The position numbers and the translations under genes were made by a program. This document shows positions 37,424 through 50,527 of a stretch of DNA of 64,000 nucleotides, in pieces. Below the pieces are notes generated by a model. The model was not told the DNA's origin, ran no database searches, and saw only the letters and a list, made by a program, of their open reading frames with translations. Numbering within the stretch: position 1 is the first letter of the stretch; each line of letters opens with the position of its first letter. Origin of the DNA: an uncultured Candidatus Saccharibacteria bacterium (GTDB taxonomy: Bacteria > Patescibacteriota > Saccharimonadia > Saccharimonadales > JACDBH01); contig OZ246417.1 in assembly GCA_965231105.1 (NCBI GenBank), positions 832,908 through 896,907 on the forward strand, written 5' to 3'.

Positions 37424-37596
37424 CAAAAACTCCCGATTAACACGCTTATGTTAACATAAAGCGAACAAAAAAGCAATATCTTGGGCGCAAATAACACCTT
37501 AGACCTGTAGCGAATAATACATTTTTACGAACATAAGCGGTTTCAGTATGCTTATTTCCGTAACAGGGGTGGTATCTGGTACAATATCAGCTTATT

Positions 37597-38780: not shown

Positions 38781-38827
38781 TAAAGAACAGGGGTAATGAT
38801 ACCGGATTTACTCTTTATAATCAATGA

Positions 38828-39055
38828 CTAATCGAGAACGACATGAGGTATAGGCAGGCGGCGCGCCATCGCAAGAGCGGCCAGGTCACGATGCAATTCC
38901 TGCAGCTGCTCTGGAGACATAATTCTTTCTGAGTCACATAAGCCTAGGCCAAATGCAGCGGGCGGTGTCTCAGGATGGGTTACGTGGAGGCGAGCATAAG
39001 CTGCTCGTGATTTTTCGGTAGCGGTGAGATTTTGTGGGGCTTCCGAGTTCTCCAT
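38828..39055 (-). CDS. Hypothetical 75 aa protein
   Basis: ORF only; no motif recognised. Confidence 0.35.
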   Translation of the reverse strand: MENSEAPQNLTATEKSRAAYARLHVTHPETPPAAFGLGLCDSERIMSPEQLQELHRDLAALAMARRLPIPHVVLD

Positions 39056-39269
39056 GACTTAAATATAACATAGTGAAAAGGCGAACAAAGTGTGGCAATT
39101 TCTAGACAGCACTCATGAACTACTCATTTTCTCGATTTACTCATTTATTATCATAAACGGTATATAAGTTACAGGAACGACTTTCCACACTATCCACAGG
39201 AAGTGGATTAAAAATAAGCATTTTCATGAAAAAAGTACTAGCATTTTAATACCAGCCTGCTTATAATAG

Positions 39270-39570
39270 CCTGCAGGTGAGTTTTGAAAGGTGTTTTGTG
39301 ATACAATACACCCCAGTGCAGTGAAGTGGCCTCACCAACCATGGAGCACCGTCCCCAGACTACAACGGACGTAAAACAGGGGTAGTACGAGCGAAACGTC
39401 CGGTGGAACCGCTCTTTACCTTTTTGTCATCTAACAATAGCGCTGAAAAATCAGCGTCGCACCTTATCAACGGATGACAAAGAGGTGGAGAGCCCGAGAC
39501 ATGCAGAGTCTGATTGAATATATTTGCGAGAATATTCAACCGGGCAAACGCATGTCTCTTTTTATTTATA
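39270..39570 (+). promoter_or_regulatory. Structured thrS leader with two T-box-core-like motifs, each followed by hairpin + U-run (candidate Thr T-box attenuator)
   Basis: AAACGTCCGGTGGAACCGCTC at 39394..39414 resembles the T-box consensus AAnnnGGGUGGUACCGCG. A second GGTGGAGAGCCCG lies at 39484..39496. The hairpin GAGACATGC(39496..39504)/GCATGTCTC(39550..39558) is followed by TTTTTATTT. An AGTGAAG box and ACC-A (Thr codon) lie at 39320..39341. Confidence 0.4.
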
Positions 39571-39591
39571 AAGGGCAAGGAGAACCCACCT

Positions 39592-41442
39592 ATGAGCGAT
39601 CAAGACAATAATCTACACGCAATGCGCCACTCTTTAGCGCATATTATGGCAACTGCAATTCAGAAACTTTGGCCAGAGGCTAAATTTGGTGTGGGCCCGG
39701 TGGTTGAGAATGGCTTTTATTACGATGTCGATTTGGGCCAACAAAGTATCTCAGAAGATGATTTTAAGAAGATAGAAGACGAGATGCGAGCTGTTATTAA
39801 GGCAGATGATACATTTGAGCGCTTCACAAAGCCCGTAGATGAAGCAATCGCATGGGCTCAAGAAAGCCAGCAGCCTTATAAAGAAGAGCTATTAAATGAC
39901 CTGAAGCGTGCTGGTACGACCGTTGCGAAAGATTTAAGTGCCGATGAGCTTGGTACGATCGCTGAAGGCGATGCTCAGGTAGAGGAGGTTTCTTTCTATA
40001 AGAATGGCAGCTTCACTGACCTCTGTCGGGGGCCTCATGTTGAATCAACGGGTAAGGTAGGGGCGTTTAAGCTTATGCGTGCTGCGGGCGCATACTGGCG
40101 CGGTAATGAAAAGAATGCGCAGATGCAACGTATTTATGGCGTTGCCTTTGAGAGTGAAGAAGAGCTTAAACAGTATCTTGAAATGCTTGAAGAAGCCAAA
40201 AGGCGTGATCACCGCAAGATAGGGCAGGAGATGGATCTGTTTGTCTTCTCTGATCTCGTTGGGCCTGGCTTACCTCTATGGACTCCTCGTGGAACTATCC
40301 TTAGAAAACAGCTCGATAACTTCGTACAGGAAATGCGCGATGAAGTAGGCTTTATGGAAGTATCTGTCCCGCATATTACCAAAAAGGATCTCTATATAAA
40401 GAGTGGACACTGGGATAAGTTTAGCGATGAACTCTTTAAGATCACCACCCGCGAAGGGCATGAGTTTGCTATGAAGCCCATGAACTGTCCGCACCATACT
40501 CAGATCTATGCGTCGTCTCAAAGGAGTTACCGAGATCTTCCTATTCGTTACCGCGAAACTACTACCTGTTACCGTGATGAGCAATCAGGGGAGCTTAATG
40601 GGCTAAGCCGAGTTCGTGCCTTTGCCCAGGATGATGCGCATATCTTCTGTCGACACAATCAGATTAAGCAGGAAATATTAAATCTGTGGGATATTGTTGA
40701 GCGCTTTTACGGCGTCTTTGGAATGGACTTATCCCTACGTGTATCTGTTAATGACCCGGATCAACAGGGCAAGTACTTAGGTGATCCTAAACTTTGGGAG
40801 AGCGCAGTAGCCGATCTTAAGACAATCGCTCAAGAAAAAGTGGGTGAGGACTATGAATTAGGTGTAGGTGAAGCCGCCTTTTACGGTCCAAAGCTTGATT
40901 TCATGAGTAAAGACGCGCTTGGCCGCACCTGGCAAGTAGCTACGATTCAGCTCGACTTCAACCAACCTGAAGGCTTTGACCTTACCTGCGTGAATGAAGA
41001 AGGGGAGAAAGAACGGATTGTTATGATCCACTGTGCCATCATGGGTTCAATTGAGCGCTTCCTTTCTATCATGATTGAGCATACGGCTGGCAAATTCCCA
41101 GTGTGGTTAGCCCCAGAACAGATTAGAATCGCCAGTGTAAACCAGGAAGAGGCAACGCTGCAATTTGTATCTGACCTTGCTGAAAAAGCTAAAGAGCTTG
41201 GCCTTAGGGCTGGGATCGATAACGATAACGAATCGGTCGGCAAGAAGATCCGTAATGCTGAAATGATAAAAGTCCCATACACGCTCATTATTGGCCAAAA
41301 GGAGATTGAGTCGGGCGAGGTTATTCCTCGAACTCGAAAAGACCTTGTTGTGCAGGAACTTAATCAAGCGATAGCAGCTCAAAACTTCTTAGAGTCAGTA
41401 GCTAATGAGGCGAAAACTCGCGTGAGCAAAAGCTCATTTTAG
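39592..41442 (+). CDS. thrS: Threonine--tRNA ligase (no N-terminal TGS domain)
   Basis: Start chosen at the ATG after AAGGAGAA; the track start 39514 lies inside the leader hairpin. HSLAHIMA editing-domain motif, class II core and anticodon-binding domain. Confidence 0.9.
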   Translation: MSDQDNNLHAMRHSLAHIMATAIQKLWPEAKFGVGPVVENGFYYDVDLGQQSISEDDFKKIEDEMRAVIKADDTFERFTKPVDEAIAWAQESQQPYKEELLNDLKRAGTTVAKDLSADELGTIAEGDAQVEEVSFYKNGSFTDLCRGPHVESTGKVGAFKLMRAAGAYWRGNEKNAQMQRIYGVAFESEEELKQYLEMLEEAKRRDHRKIGQEMDLFVFSDLVGPGLPLWTPRGTILRKQLDNFVQEMRDEVGFMEVSVPHITKKDLYIKSGHWDKFSDELFKITTREGHEFAMKPMNCPHHTQIYASSQRSYRDLPIRYRETTTCYRDEQSGELNGLSRVRAFAQDDAHIFCRHNQIKQEILNLWDIVERFYGVFGMDLSLRVSVNDPDQQGKYLGDPKLWESAVADLKTIAQEKVGEDYELGVGEAAFYGPKLDFMSKDALGRTWQVATIQLDFNQPEGFDLTCVNEEGEKERIVMIHCAIMGSIERFLSIMIEHTAGKFPVWLAPEQIRIASVNQEEATLQFVSDLAEKAKELGLRAGIDNDNESVGKKIRNAEMIKVPYTLIIGQKEIESGEVIPRTRKDLVVQELNQAIAAQNFLESVANEAKTRVSKSSF

Positions 41443-46376: not shown

Positions 46377-47057
46377 ATGTGGCAAAAACAAAACAACCAG
46401 TTATACAAAGAATTTACCTTTAAAGACTTTAAAGAAGCCTTCTCCTTTATGGAGCAGGTGGCTAAAGTGGCGGAGCGGTTAAACCATCATCCACGTTGGC
46501 TTAATGAGTGGAATAAAGTCCAGTTTTGGTTGTTCTCTCATAGTGCGGGAGAAATTACTGAAAAAGACGAGCAGTTAGCCAAGGAAATAGACCATCTCTT
46601 TGAGCATCTACATAGGCTTAAAGAAGAAGCACCATTGCCGCAACTTGATGAGATAAAAATCTTTGCCGATGGTGGCTCGAGAGGCAATCCTGGACCGTCT
46701 GCAGGTGGCTTTGTTATCTTGGATATGGAAGATAACGTTGTTAAAAAGTCTGGTAAATATTTAGGCTTCACCACCAACAATCAGGCTGAGTACCATTCTA
46801 TTAAGGGTGGTTTAGAGGCTGCTATAAAGATGAATGCACGCACGGTGCATGTGTATATGGACAGTATGTTGGTCGTAAATCAGATGAAGGGTATTTTTAA
46901 GGTTAAGAACCGGGATCTTTTGCCCATCCATGATGCCATCAAAGCCCTCACCACGCAGTTTCAATACGTAGAATTCACGCATGTTCCTCGGGAGCTCAAC
47001 AAACTTGCTGATGCGGTAGTCAACGAAACGCTCGACGCCGAAGCTAAAAAAGCATAA
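46377..47057 (+). CDS. Fusion protein: pterin-4a-carbinolamine dehydratase (PCD/DCoH)-like domain + RNase H domain
   Basis: N-terminal half: FKDFKEAFSFMEQVAKVAERLNHHPRW...V.F.L.SH (PCD signature). C-terminal half: FADGGSRGNPGPS...NNQAEY...MDS...NKLADA (DEDD RNase H pattern). Confidence 0.75.
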   Translation: MWQKQNNQLYKEFTFKDFKEAFSFMEQVAKVAERLNHHPRWLNEWNKVQFWLFSHSAGEITEKDEQLAKEIDHLFEHLHRLKEEAPLPQLDEIKIFADGGSRGNPGPSAGGFVILDMEDNVVKKSGKYLGFTTNNQAEYHSIKGGLEAAIKMNARTVHVYMDSMLVVNQMKGIFKVKNRDLLPIHDAIKALTTQFQYVEFTHVPRELNKLADAVVNETLDAEAKKA

Positions 47058-47075: not shown

Positions 47076-47415
47076 GTCAGGTTACCGGCTGATCGCGCGA
47101 AGGTTTACCTTTGCGAGGAAAGTCCGGGCAGCGCAGGGTAGTGCTGTTGCTAACGGCAACCGAAGGAAACTTCAGGGAAAGTGCCACAGAAACGAAACCG
47201 CCTGTTTACAGGTAAGGATGAAACGAGTGGGGTAAGAGCCCACAGCATCTCATGGTGACATGAGACGAAGGTAAACCCAGTACGCTGCAAGGAGAACATG
47301 TTCCATTAAGGTTACCCGCCGGAGCATTTTCATAAAAACCGCTTGATATGTCGAGTAATCGGCACGCTAGATAGATGATCGGCTAAAACAGAACCCGGCT
47401 TACTAGTAACCTGAC
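47076..47415 (+). ncRNA. rnpB: RNase P RNA (bacterial type)
   Basis: GAGGAAAGTCCGGGC and ACAGAACCCGGCTTA universal motifs. The terminal P1 pairing is GTCAGGTTAC...GTAACCTGAC. Confidence 0.85.
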
Positions 47416-47420
47416 ATAAA

Positions 47421-48008: not shown

Positions 48009-48516
48009 TCTGAGTGCTCCTTATCATGAATATTAATTGTTTGCCGTTGAGCTGCGGTTGAGAGTCAACTGCAACGGTGCCATTAAAGCTTTCAATAATA
48101 CGGTCTGCGAGCTTAAAGCCGAGTTCGCGGTGTGCGTTCTCGCGGCCGCGGTAGACAATAGCAATCTTCACTTTGTCTCCGTCATCGAGGAAGCTCTGGA
48201 CTTTGCGAAGTTTTACGCCCATATCATGGTCGCTAATCTTCAGCCCGAAGCGCATTTGCTTTACTTCCTGGACTTTGGCATTCCGTTTGTTCTTTTGAAG
48301 CTGCTTCGTACGCTGGTAATTATATTTGCCCCAGTCGACGATCTTGGCTACCGGTGGGTTAGCTTCTGGAGAGATTTCTATCAAGTCTAATTCAGCTTCG
48401 CGGGCTGCTTGCAATGCCTCAGCACGGGACATAATCCCTAAAGATTGGCCTTGCTCATCAATGACCCTTAATTCTGGTGCCCGAATCTGTTCATTCAGGC
48501 GCGTGAACTTACTGAT
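47986..48516 (-). CDS. infC: Translation initiation factor IF-3, probable non-AUG (AUC) start
   Basis: The track begins at an internal Met (48432). The frame stays open upstream to a TAG, encoding ISKFTRLNEQIRAPELRVIDEQGQSLG, the conserved IF3 N-terminus. AAAGGAG lies 9 nt before the ATC at 48516. Confidence 0.8.
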   Translation of the reverse strand: MSKFTRLNEQIRAPELRVIDEQGQSLGIMSRAEALQAAREAELDLIEISPEANPPVAKIVDWGKYNYQRTKQLQKNKRNAKVQEVKQMRFGLKISDHDMGVKLRKVQSFLDDGDKVKIAIVYRGRENAHRELGFKLADRIIESFNGTVAVDSQPQLNGKQLIFMIRSTQNAQTKNS

Positions 48517-48604
48517 AGACTATTTCTCCTTTAGCCGACCTAACGGTTTGTTAGACATTCTAACAGATGGAGCATAAGAGGTCAACAAGCTTACGCAGAA
48601 TACT

Positions 48605-48853
48605 TTACAAGCTAGGCTTATCGATAACTAAAGGGCCCACATGACCGGCGAGAATATCAGGTTCCGATGTATCGCAGAACACTATATGCCTCAGCCCAAA
48701 CGTTTCTTCCGGTGAACAGTAGGGATCTTTTGACGGCTCGCATAGTGCCAGGATTTGGACTGAGCCCACGCAAGAACGTCCCACCTGCCAGTAGAGCGGG
48801 CAGTATTTAGACATGCAGTCCGTAATGATGGGAAAGCTCTCCTGAGAATTCAT
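48605..48853 (-). CDS. Cys-rich hypothetical protein (82 aa)
   Basis: ORF with 7 Cys; no motif recognised. Confidence 0.35.
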   Translation of the reverse strand: MNSQESFPIITDCMSKYCPLYWQVGRSCVGSVQILALCEPSKDPYCSPEETFGLRHIVFCDTSEPDILAGHVGPLVIDKPSL

Positions 48854-48905
48854 ATGTGTAAAAGTATAGATTATGCCTTTGAGCTATGAAAGCTAACTCC
48901 AGGCA

Positions 48906-48942
48906 AAGAAAAAGCGCTGACTTTTTTGGTCAGCGCTTTTAT
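48906..48942. terminator. Bidirectional terminator hairpin
   Basis: AAGAAAAAGCGCTGAC-TTTTTTG-GTCAGCGCTTTTATTT. Confidence 0.6.
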
Positions 48943-49007
48943 TTCGTGGGTGATCTTGGTTTTGATTTTTCGTTTGCTTTTAAGGTTTTGGAGTTTTCGT
49001 TTTTGGT

Positions 49008-49040
49008 GGTGATAACAGCTTGCGAGAAACTGTTATCACC
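49008..49040. repeat. Perfect 11 bp inverted repeat with 11 nt spacer
   Basis: GGTGATAACAG-cttgcgagaaa-CTGTTATCACC, followed on the plus strand by a T-rich tract. Confidence 0.6.
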
Positions 49041-50167
49041 CTTGTTCTTTTTGTTTTTGAGCACTTTTTTTATTCAAGCGCTGAATGTATCTTAATGTAG
49101 CCATAAGCATGCTGTCAACATATTTTTTGAAGATTTTCTGTGTATAACTTGCTCCTGAAATAGGGCGCCAAACTCGAGACTTTATTAACAGGTAGGAACC
49201 AGCAAATTATGTACATAAGCCGAACGAAAATTGTTAAAAATACGCGCTAAAATATGCAAAGTTGTTATTAAAAAATAGCAAAAAGAAGCATACAAAAGTT
49301 AATAGGTTGCCTTATGCATAAACTCAATTCCGCTCGCTACGCCTGCCTACGGGTGAACCTGATAAGTAGCTCCGACTTCTAAATTGTTACTACATGCTCC
49401 AAAGGGATAGTAAAAGAAAATAATAAAATGTACCTTAAAAATCCTTGTAGCAAGCCATAGAAATGTTTGATCAAGAACGATATAAAAGTCTCGGTGCCTT
49501 AGAAATTTATATGATTTCCTTATAAAAAAGCGAACAAAATTATAATCAAATTTTAGCTCCAATAGCGCCCATTAAGACACGGGTGTTTGTTGCAAAAAAT
49601 GCCTCAACCGTAAGGCCTTAAAACACACCATATTCCATGCCTACACGTGAAGCTTGGGTGGATTATTTTAAGTCCGTTTTATAGCAAAATGGGGCAATGA
49701 GCAAGTAGGCATAACGGCATAAAACGAACATATGTTTAGTACGAACAAAGACCGAATTGTAAACATTAGTTCGTGCAAACAAAGACAGAACAGAAGAAAG
49801 ATTTAAATATTAGTTATTAATATTACAACAAACTTATGAACACAATTTAAACTGTAACGTTATTATTGATACAACAAAATCATTGACCATAAGCTTTTTT
49901 CGTAGTAACCTGGCACATGTAAGATTTCAGAAACAAAAACTTACAAACAAAGCCTGAGGGAGGCGGCAGGGGCACCAAAATCACTACGGCGCTCCGCACT
50001 CGCTAAACGTGTGCAGAGCGGTCAGTCACAGCCATGGACGGTAAGCGCTATATAATAATTTTTAATGAGCGGATTTACCGTCCCGGCTCCAAAATTTTAT
50101 TAACATAATATGGACCAAAGCTATGTCCAAAACATACAAAAATACGTGCTAAAAAGCGAACAAAAAA

Positions 50168-50527
50168 ATGTCTAAAATATATAAACAAAAGAAAGCCTGG
50201 ATCGTGCTCGGAAGCACGATATTTTTATCTCTCTTTGTACTAAACACGGATCCGAGGGAATTATCAGCACCTTACTTATTGGTGCCGCCTTTATTTATCT
50301 TCCTCATCCTTTATATGTTTACGTATATGATTTTGCAGGCTTATACGACGCTATCTCGACAGAAGCAGAAAGTCGTAAGCGGTATTGTCGCAAGTGGGCC
50401 AATGGTGCTTCTTCTCTTAGCATCCTTAGGGCAGTTAACGCCCCGAGATATGGTCTTGTCACTTTTGTTTATAGGAGGATTGGCGCTCTATTCTTCGCGA
50501 GCGGTACCTAATCTTCAACGGCAATAA
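50168..50527 (+). CDS. Small polytopic membrane protein
   Basis: 119 aa with about four TM helices. First gene after the AT-rich gap. Confidence 0.55.
   Translation: MSKIYKQKKAWIVLGSTIFLSLFVLNTDPRELSAPYLLVPPLFIFLILYMFTYMILQAYTTLSRQKQKVVSGIVASGPMVLLLLASLGQLTPRDMVLSLLFIGGLALYSSRAVPNLQRQ

Follow-up and report, generated by a model that had tools for sequence, protein, structure and literature searches.

What does the longest gene-free gap in this piece of a saccharibacterial genome contain? The DNA analysed here, referred to as the window, is a 64,000-nucleotide (nt) stretch from an uncultured Candidatus Saccharibacteria bacterium (Saccharimonadales). With open reading frames (ORFs) of at least 80 amino acids (aa) and RNA genes masked, the longest uncovered stretch in it is 48854-50167 (1314 nt), and the runner-up measures 733 nt. 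An earlier inspection of the letters alone, the original prediction, had described this gap as the longest non-coding stretch and had judged it AT-rich by eye. Both statements were borne out, since the computed GC content of 48860-50167 was 0.362, compared to a mean of 0.464 for the window, and was the minimum among 1308-nt intervals in the 64 kb. The explanation that we favour, with a probability of about 0.7, is that the gap is a divergent promoter region with two unannotated, class-wide structured RNAs and a fast-evolving spacer between them. The RNA on the minus strand (RNA-A) would be a stand-alone small RNA (sRNA), and the RNA on the plus strand (RNA-B) would be the 5' leader of the downstream ATPase operon. 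The suggestion that the gap could hold one or more sRNAs is refined accordingly to two conserved structured RNAs, one per strand.

Related loci were collected in two sets, 80 genome loci found via the downstream ATPase, all of them from Candidatus Saccharibacteria, and 120 further metagenome loci found via the RNA-B motif only. BLASTN searches with 48400-50300 as the query against the 80 genome loci and then against the 120 metagenome loci showed that conservation was restricted to the start and promoter of infC, to ~48950-49100 and to ~50000-50100. The intervals 48600-48900 and 49200-49850 gave no BLASTN matches in the ~200 loci. The conserved blocks retained 75-97% nucleotide identity where the neighbouring proteins were 27-75% identical. 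The alignment to related genomes that had been proposed as a check resolved the gap into two sharp conserved blocks, with the rest unconserved. The RNA-A block was kept in nearly all related loci, and the RNA-A motif lay upstream on the opposite strand in 51 of the 59 RNA-B-motif loci whose upstream sequence exceeded 1.7 kb.

The left-hand block carries the following elements.

49139-49147, minus strand: DnaA-box consensus TTATACACA, ~20 nt upstream of the -35 hexamer of RNA-A
49118-49113 and 49094-49089, minus strand: RNA-A promoter predicted by promoter scan, with -35 TTGACA, an 18-nt spacer and -10 TAAGAT
~49083-48906, minus strand: RNA-A, a predicted stand-alone small RNA of ~175 nt, based on conservation, covariation and promoter and terminator motifs
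49082-49060, minus strand: RNA-A 5' hairpin (AGCAC...GUGCU)
49059-49048, minus strand: invariant CAAAAACAAAAA of RNA-A, single-stranded
49040-49008, minus strand: RNA-A hairpin 2, of 10-13 base pairs (bp) in relatives, with the conserved loop UUCUCGCAAG
between hairpin 2 and the terminator, minus strand: RNA-A tail, G-poor and A/C-rich
48906-48942, minus strand: RNA-A intrinsic terminator, a perfect inverted repeat of 12 bp (48910-48921/48929-48940) and a downstream T run

A minus-strand alignment gave the same order of elements in every relative, namely AAGTTATACACAG, TTGACA, the spacer, TAAGAT, the 5' hairpin, CAAAAACAAAAA, the loop hairpin, the tail and the terminator. In an alignment of 65 RNA-A sequences, 98.1% of the cells were paired, compared to 28-49% when the partners were slid. 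Changes on both sides were observed in 10 of the 16 pairs, and none of 500 shuffles matched the observed covariation. One of the pairs was U-G in 47 of the 65 sequences, and such frequent G-U pairs are consistent with the minus strand only. The region 49084-48900 on the minus strand folded with a z score of -7.34. The median length of RNA-A in relatives was ~159 nt, and the tail consisted of 53% A, 24% C, 17% U and 6% G. A terminator-like hairpin was present at the equivalent site in 111 of 130 relatives versus 10 of 130 shuffles, and TTGAC[A/G/T] occupied the -35 site in 145 of 146 loci, with TAAGAT as the most frequent -10 hexamer. By sequence prediction, RNA-A possesses its own promoter and its own intrinsic terminator, as expected of an sRNA. 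Both hairpins had been noticed in the original prediction. The hairpin at 48906-48942, described there as a strong bidirectional terminator, is real, its inverted repeat (48910-48940) being flanked by A and T runs, but is best taken as simply the RNA-A terminator and not as bidirectional. The inverted repeat at 49008-49040 is likewise a real hairpin, with arms of 14 nt that are 93% complementary, and corresponds to hairpin 2. The complement of the RNA-A loop, CTTGCGAGAA, was found 11 times in the window with at most one mismatch, where 4.8 matches were expected, with unclear placement relative to 5' untranslated regions (UTRs).

RNA-A was found to be conserved independently of an adjacent coding gene. 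In most relatives, comM/yifB, which encodes a Mg-chelatase-like AAA ATPase of ~510 aa, is located between the RNA-A terminator and infC (L002:4389-5936 is one example). comM is absent from the whole 64-kb window, and neither tblastn with the ComM of a relative nor a ComM profile hidden Markov model run against six-frame translations found a remnant of it in the gap. The gene has also been lost in L009, L027, L036, L071, L080 and many metagenome loci, and RNA-A was retained in most of them. As infC is served by a promoter of its own, RNA-A behaves like an independent gene and not like the leader of a particular ORF. In one relative, comM and RNA-A are separated by an inserted gene that encodes a 23S rRNA intervening-sequence protein (PF05635; L073:5944-6330, minus strand), indicating that this neighbourhood tolerates insertions.

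Upstream of the RNA-A promoter, TTATNCACA was found at a constant distance in 130 of the 146 loci, and its variation was confined to the N of the consensus (A in 86, G in 41 and C in 3). In three loci, it was replaced by the inverted TGTGGATAA. This conservation suggests that DnaA would bind at 49139-49147 and may serve as a transcription factor for an sRNA. RNA-A would be transcribed as a stand-alone small RNA from a near-consensus sigma-70-type promoter behind a conserved DnaA-box-like site.

The right-hand block carries RNA-B, whose elements are listed below.

49883-49888 and 49906-49911, plus strand: putative RNA-B promoter, with -35 TTGACC, a 17-nt spacer and -10 TAACCT
~49918-50167, plus strand: RNA-B, a predicted structured 5' leader with six helices
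49918-49945, plus strand: RNA-B 5' hairpin with the CAAAAACAAAAA-like loop CAGAAACAAAAA
49950-49989, plus strand: lineage-specific GC-rich segment of RNA-B
49990-50087, plus strand: RNA-B conserved core, GC content 0.51
49990-49994/50016-50020, plus strand: P1 (CGCUC/GAGCG), which encloses a hairpin of variable sequence with a CUAAAG-type loop
50016-50027, plus strand: invariant GAGCGGUCAGUC
50031-50033/50085-50087, plus strand: P2 (GCC/GGC)
50036-50044/50075-50083, plus strand: P3 (GGACGGUAA/UUACCGUCC)
50046-50049/50068-50071, plus strand: P4 (CGCU/AGCG), closing an AU-rich loop
50151-50165, plus strand: AAAAAGCGAACAAAA word directly before the ATG at 50168, a direct repeat with an exact second copy at 49525-49539

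A covariance model built for the core matched the plus strand of the window at 49977-50099 with 110.5 bits, compared to 16 bits for the minus strand. Each related locus gave one match, which scored 62-115 bits on the plus strand, and minus-strand scores did not exceed 25 bits. A search of the 64-kb window with the model found no second copy of RNA-B. In the model-fitted alignment, which is biased towards the modelled structure, 96.8% of the cells were paired compared to 28-46% with slid partners, 19 of the 26 pairs changed on both sides, and none of 500 shuffles reached the observed values. P1, P3 and P4 were also obtained from an independent MAFFT and RNAalifold run, in which 14 of 21 pairs covaried. 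Individual pairs varied, for example, as AU:43/GC:26 and GC:49/AU:15/GU:9. The 5' hairpin also covaried in relatives (GUAAG/CUUAC, AUGAG/CUCAU and UUCAG/CUGAA), and compensatory variants of P3 were plentiful, such as GGGCAACAA/UUGUUGCCC and GGAUGGUAA/UUACCAUCC. The nucleotides at the junctions, GAGCGGUCAGUC, UAAGCGCU and GAGCGGAUUU, were invariant. RNA-B shows, in short, an aptamer-like structure with covariation, of the kind expected of a riboswitch. The region 49916-50167 folded with a z score of -3.27, which together with the GC content of the core bears out the description of this end of the gap as GC-rich and structured. Three relatives carry an extra hairpin directly after the invariant GUCAGUCA (L035:6908-7050, L038:4196-4355 and L045:2047-2207), at a variable-insertion site such as structured RNAs typically have. 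Complements of the GUCAGUCA tract within the window were uninformative.

Of 171 distinct loci, 163 had the promoter pattern TTGAC-N16-18-TAnnnT upstream of the RNA-B core. In a comparison of the two sides of the core, the pattern was present upstream in 153 of 168 loci and in none of the 168 in the 200 nt downstream. The genes that follow are these.

ATG at 50168, plus strand: first ORF to the right of the gap, a four-helix membrane protein of 119 aa
to the right of the gap, after the membrane protein: Pro-rich protein of 129 aa
to the right of the gap: ATPase of 1090 aa with weak HerA/DUF87, TraG-D_C, TraD/VirD4 and CedD matches

A homologue of the ATPase lay downstream on the same strand in all 70 RNA-B-motif loci whose downstream sequence exceeded 1.5 kb, and there was no other consensus promoter in between. 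By sequence, RNA-B has the 5' UTR location and the consistent gene association of a riboswitch. The idea of a regulatory hub for the ATPase operon is sharpened by these data, with RNA-B as the predicted leader of an operon that encodes an orphan VirD4/TraD-like ATPase together with a small membrane protein and a Pro-rich protein. In the simplest reading, transcription of the operon most likely starts at the RNA-B promoter, and there only, and runs through the leader and the terminator. A terminator-like hairpin followed the RNA-B core in 140 of 188 distinct loci (~74%) versus 22 of 188 shuffles. A T run was located 3-60 nt ahead of the membrane-protein start codon in 34 of 76 strictly called cases, and one lay at 114 nt. 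For the operon to be expressed in most relatives, transcription would have to read through an intrinsic terminator located 3-60 nt ahead of the first start codon, an arrangement that would resemble an attenuator or a riboswitch. The window and its nearest relatives (L002, L003, L005, L023 and L079) carry AAAAAGCGAACA right before the start codon, in place of the terminator. The AAAAAGCGAACAAAA copy ahead of the start codon is common only to the closest relatives, which carry GCGAACATG and are also without a terminator. As the terminator is missing in this clade, RNA-B would act there as a long structured 5' UTR.

An A-rich tract is located just past both predicted start sites, as CAAAAACAAAAA at 49048-49059 on the minus strand and as CAGAAACAAAAA at 49928-49939 on the plus strand. 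It is single-stranded in RNA-A and forms a hairpin loop in RNA-B, and it was kept in both RNAs across the relatives. In the window, the tract occurs in the two RNAs, in a second copy inside the RNA-A tail and in one coding match, and nowhere else. Its conservation in both RNAs suggests that they may share a binding factor.

The two blocks are separated by one further feature.

49153-49882, between the divergent promoters: hypervariable AT-rich spacer of ~730 nt, GC content 0.34

This spacer had no similarity to any of the ~200 related loci. The equivalent spacer was 25-1400 nt long in relatives, and in all-against-all BLAST it was unalignable even among fairly close genomes. On both strands, the interval 49153-49915 folded no more stably than its dinucleotide-shuffled versions (z = +0.44 and +0.64), and the ORFs in the spacer matched no Pfam families. 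We consider the spacer to be probably functionless, a fast-turnover filler between two divergent promoters. The original prediction had seen the gap as packed with hairpins, which is correct for both ends (z = -7.34 for RNA-A and -3.27 for 49916-50167) but not for the shuffle-like bulk. It had also pointed to CGAAC-type words. AARCGAACA occurred three times in the gap compared to 1.14 times expected in the whole window, and the AA(A/G)CGAACA sites of the window are 49525-49539, 49722-49730, 50151-50165 and 37459-37467 (four in total, three of them in the gap). The words are indeed enriched in this gap, but an enrichment of CGAACA was not seen in the spacers of other genomes, and the words are a lineage-specific and not a conserved feature of the spacer. 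The copy at 49722 is followed by an ATG and an ORF of 24 codons.

We compared both RNAs with known families and systems. Rfam 15 gave no match at or above the gathering threshold in 48433-50167. In E-value mode with permissive filters, the gap and its sub-regions gave only sub-threshold matches on the terminator or on AT-rich sequence, and seven relatives gave only rRNA, RNase P and tRNA matches. The Rfam scan that had been proposed for the gap was carried through in this way, and neither RNA-A nor RNA-B matched any Rfam 15 family. The literature searched on non-coding RNAs (ncRNAs) of Saccharibacteria and Patescibacteria, including papers on ncRNA discovery, contained no description of either RNA. 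Both RNAs are new families, and their kinds are known, as RNA-B is similar to orphan riboswitch or attenuator leaders and RNA-A to stand-alone A-rich sRNAs. Two specific candidates were rejected. For 6S RNA, there was no Rfam match, and the consensus and minimum-free-energy folds showed no pairing between the 5' and 3' ends of either RNA. The L20 leader (RF00558) reached 14.7 bits against a gathering threshold of 58.7, on the plus (wrong) strand and on the terminator only. RNA-A does resemble the L20 leader of infC-rpmI-rplT in lying upstream of these genes on the same strand and in ending with a terminator. However, comM usually separates RNA-A from infC, and infC has its own conserved promoter.

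Structured leaders are known upstream of pilus or secretion genes, the cyclic di-GMP-I (c-di-GMP-I) leader being an example. RNA-B was compared with such leaders through Rfam, where it had no match. RNA-B resembles orphan riboswitch candidates and terminator-type 5' leaders in its multiple helices, invariant junctions, promoter-to-ORF position, association with one operon and terminator in most genomes. It differs from them in that no antiterminator was detected, the gene content implies no ligand, and the terminator is missing here. Processive-antitermination leaders, such as EAR RNA with LoaP and ops with RfaH, belong to long operons for surface structures, secretion and conjugation. Similarly, RNA-B precedes an operon with a coupling-protein-like ATPase and has a terminator to be read through, and the CAAAAACAAAAA tract past both start sites could be a factor-loading site. 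However, no EAR match was found in Rfam, and the CAAAAACAAAAA tract does not resemble ops. CrcZ and CrcY are A-rich, protein-titrating small RNAs that bind Hfq via A-R-N repeats. RNA-A shares with them the stand-alone arrangement with its own promoter and terminator, the invariant AAAAACAAAAA tract and a long, unstructured, A-rich and G-poor tail. In addition, its CAAAAACAAAAA tract is of the (A-R-N) type. In contrast, RNA-A has no sequence homology with CrcZ or CrcY, and its conserved hairpin loop UUCUCGCAAG has no counterpart there.

Several points weigh against a divergent pair of RNAs with RNA-B as an operon leader. Because both sets of loci were gathered through conserved features, one through the ATPase and the other through an exact RNA-B motif, copies that have diverged or moved elsewhere would be missed. 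The start sites and the 3' ends of the RNAs are both predicted. Across the window, the count of promoter-like sites was not above chance, and the two promoters are credited because they are conserved and not because the scan found them. The RNA-B pair counts carry the bias of the model-fitted alignment, and P2 was not recovered in the independent MAFFT and RNAalifold run. No terminator follows RNA-B in the window or in its five nearest relatives. Furthermore, a consistent antiterminator pairing of the terminator 5' arm with upstream RNA-B was not found, as the pairing was stronger by only 0.7 kcal/mol than that of shuffled arms and its positions were scattered. Switching by a ligand, by a protein, by processive antitermination or by constitutive partial read-through are consequently all candidates.

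The main alternatives concern what RNA-B does. It may be a true riboswitch, in which a metabolite or ion aptamer sets read-through into the VirD4-like ATPase operon. The deeply conserved multi-helix core with its invariant junctions, the leader position with strict gene association, the terminator directly ahead of the first ORF in about three-quarters of the relatives and the aptamer-typical optional hairpin inserted in three loci all point in this direction. We nevertheless regard this as unlikely, because neither a conserved antiterminator nor an alternative pairing was found, the membrane protein, the Pro-rich protein and the coupling-protein-like ATPase hint at no ligand, and the terminator is wholly missing in the clade of the window. 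These data would also agree with a leader that binds a protein or acts by antitermination. It is also doubtful that RNA-B is mainly an abundant trans-acting or protein-binding sRNA that ends at its own terminator, with the operon linkage being a syntenic accident or a matter of low read-through, as in the case of 6S RNA and ygfA. The strong promoter and strong terminator in most relatives would indeed yield a discrete RNA of ~200 nt, and the CAAAAACAAAAA tract common to both RNAs suggests a common binding partner. On the other hand, the linkage to the operon was kept in every testable locus while the spacer side varies freely, and the operon lacks a consensus promoter of its own. The clade of the window lost the terminator yet kept RNA-B, so that RNA-B would be a 5' UTR there.

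We give very little weight to the view that the whole gap is a neutral spacer or decayed DNA (the remains of a pseudogene or a mobile element, for instance), in which hairpins arose by chance. The central 730 nt (AT-rich, unconserved, variable in length and shuffle-like in structure) and the loss of comM beside the gap are in keeping with it. However, the blocks at the ends show compensatory changes and exceed the neighbouring proteins in identity, so that this view is already refuted for the two gap ends. The decayed mobile element or pseudogene of the original prediction was not supported by the data, with no protein family, no remnant of comM, no true viral-contig match and a spacer unlike any related locus. 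A mobile or viral origin was rejected, as the pattern matches in IMG/VR were due to chance, none of them fitted the covariance model, and the RNA-A word lay in unrelated sequence. It is extremely improbable that the conserved blocks encode small proteins. The ORFs concerned are present, both the 69-aa and 71-aa ORFs (neither with a Pfam match) and an ORF for the proposed 41-aa Lys-rich peptide (48939-49064, minus strand), which lies within RNA-A and ends at the terminator. The equivalent of the latter, however, is 23-41 aa long in relatives, with differing stop positions and no family match. Single-base indels between the invariant blocks cause UUCUCGCAAG to be read in different frames in different genomes and shift the end of the ORF, so the 41-aa ORF is no gene, its reading frame and length not being conserved. 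Conservation tracks base pairing and not codons, and the 69-aa and 71-aa ORFs are antisense to RNA-A or in the unconserved spacer. We attach next to no credence to the idea that the chromosomal replication origin, or some other locus that titrates DnaA, is situated here. In its favour, the region is AT-rich and intergenic and has a DnaA-box consensus with perfect conservation, and gyrB and gyrA are located 8 kb downstream. Nevertheless, there is no cluster of boxes, with TTATNCACA present once in the gap and twice in the window against 2.5 expected. The GC skew is positive throughout the window, and the cumulative skew rises without a change of sign. The locus is ~100-125 kb from coordinate 1 in two complete chromosomes of metagenome-assembled genomes, and a spacer of only 25-100 nt in some relatives leaves no room for an origin. 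From the lone box, the skew of constant sign, the distance from coordinate 1 and the short spacers, we read TTATNCACA as a site for a transcription factor, either DnaA or a protein of similar specificity. Overall, the description of the gap in the original prediction was largely confirmed, failing on the hairpin density of the bulk and on the frame of the 41-aa peptide, and its interpretation as sRNAs or a regulatory hub was right in outline, unlike the decayed mobile element and the peptide. The data establish the conservation, strand, covariation and synteny of the two RNAs and their promoter and terminator motifs, and from these we infer their transcription, the cis-regulation of the VirD4-like operon, control by DnaA and the role of the A-rich tract that they share.

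Patescibacteria (candidate phyla radiation, CPR) have reduced genomes that encode few regulators. To our knowledge, almost nothing is known about gene regulation in this group. The locus provides two strongly conserved, covariation-supported RNAs that are absent from Rfam 15 and undescribed in the literature searched, and one of them, RNA-B, is strictly tied to a widespread orphan VirD4-like coupling protein. These results matter for CPR biology and for RNA discovery. For annotation, they account for a striking "empty" region seen repeatedly in Saccharibacteria genomes. They also offer testable handles in genetically tractable saccharibacteria, namely a candidate leader or riboswitch, a site at which DnaA may act as a transcription factor and an RNA tract common to both RNAs. 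A more far-reaching proposal, which we consider quite unlikely, is that RNA-A and RNA-B constitute a Saccharibacteria-specific divergent regulatory module, with a new class of riboswitch or antitermination leader gating an orphan VirD4-like DNA translocase operon, a DnaA-box-controlled sRNA and a CAAAAACAAAAA tract for a shared factor. If true, such a module would, in these ultrasmall epibionts, couple the replication or DNA status to DNA transfer and uptake, functions represented by comM and the coupling-protein-like ATPase.

According to a published survey, homologues of VirD4-like coupling proteins are very common in Patescibacteria and mostly lie far from virB4, and in S. epibionticum the VirD4-like gene did not turn out to be required for epibiotic growth, so the protein may serve other uses (PMC12102498).

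The remaining features around the gap are as follows.

47077-47418, to the left of the gap: RNase P RNA
to the left of the gap, minus strand: rplT-rpmI-infC
near 48519, minus strand: apparent start of infC, a non-AUG codon (ATC) behind a GGAG Shine-Dalgarno sequence
48585-48557, minus strand: conserved infC promoter, TTGACC-N17-TAGAAT, in the extended -10 form TTGACC-N17-TGnTAGAAT
48605-48853, minus strand: Cys-rich ORF of 82 aa with ordinary GC content, at the position of comM in relatives

The 82-aa ORF had itself as the sole match among 5.8 billion proteins and matched no Pfam or NCBIfam families, and its DNA had no match in the ~200 related loci. This adjacent ORF is an orphan, and the gap is in effect larger and extends over 48521-50167. 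An ATG-based ORF call of infC cuts off part of the N-terminal domain. On the other side, gyrB, gyrA and the 16S rRNA gene lie beyond the ATPase operon.

Further to the left, the second-longest ORF-free stretch (38781-39513, 733 nt) is located between tRNA-Val (minus strand) and thrS (39514-41442). It had no Rfam match and hence no recognisable T-box, and it could harbour a further unannotated leader or RNA. Finally, a single ORF of 226 aa at 46377-47057 (plus strand) combines a pterin-4a-carbinolamine dehydratase domain with an RNase H domain (RVT_3/RNase_H), and this combination is kept in relatives.

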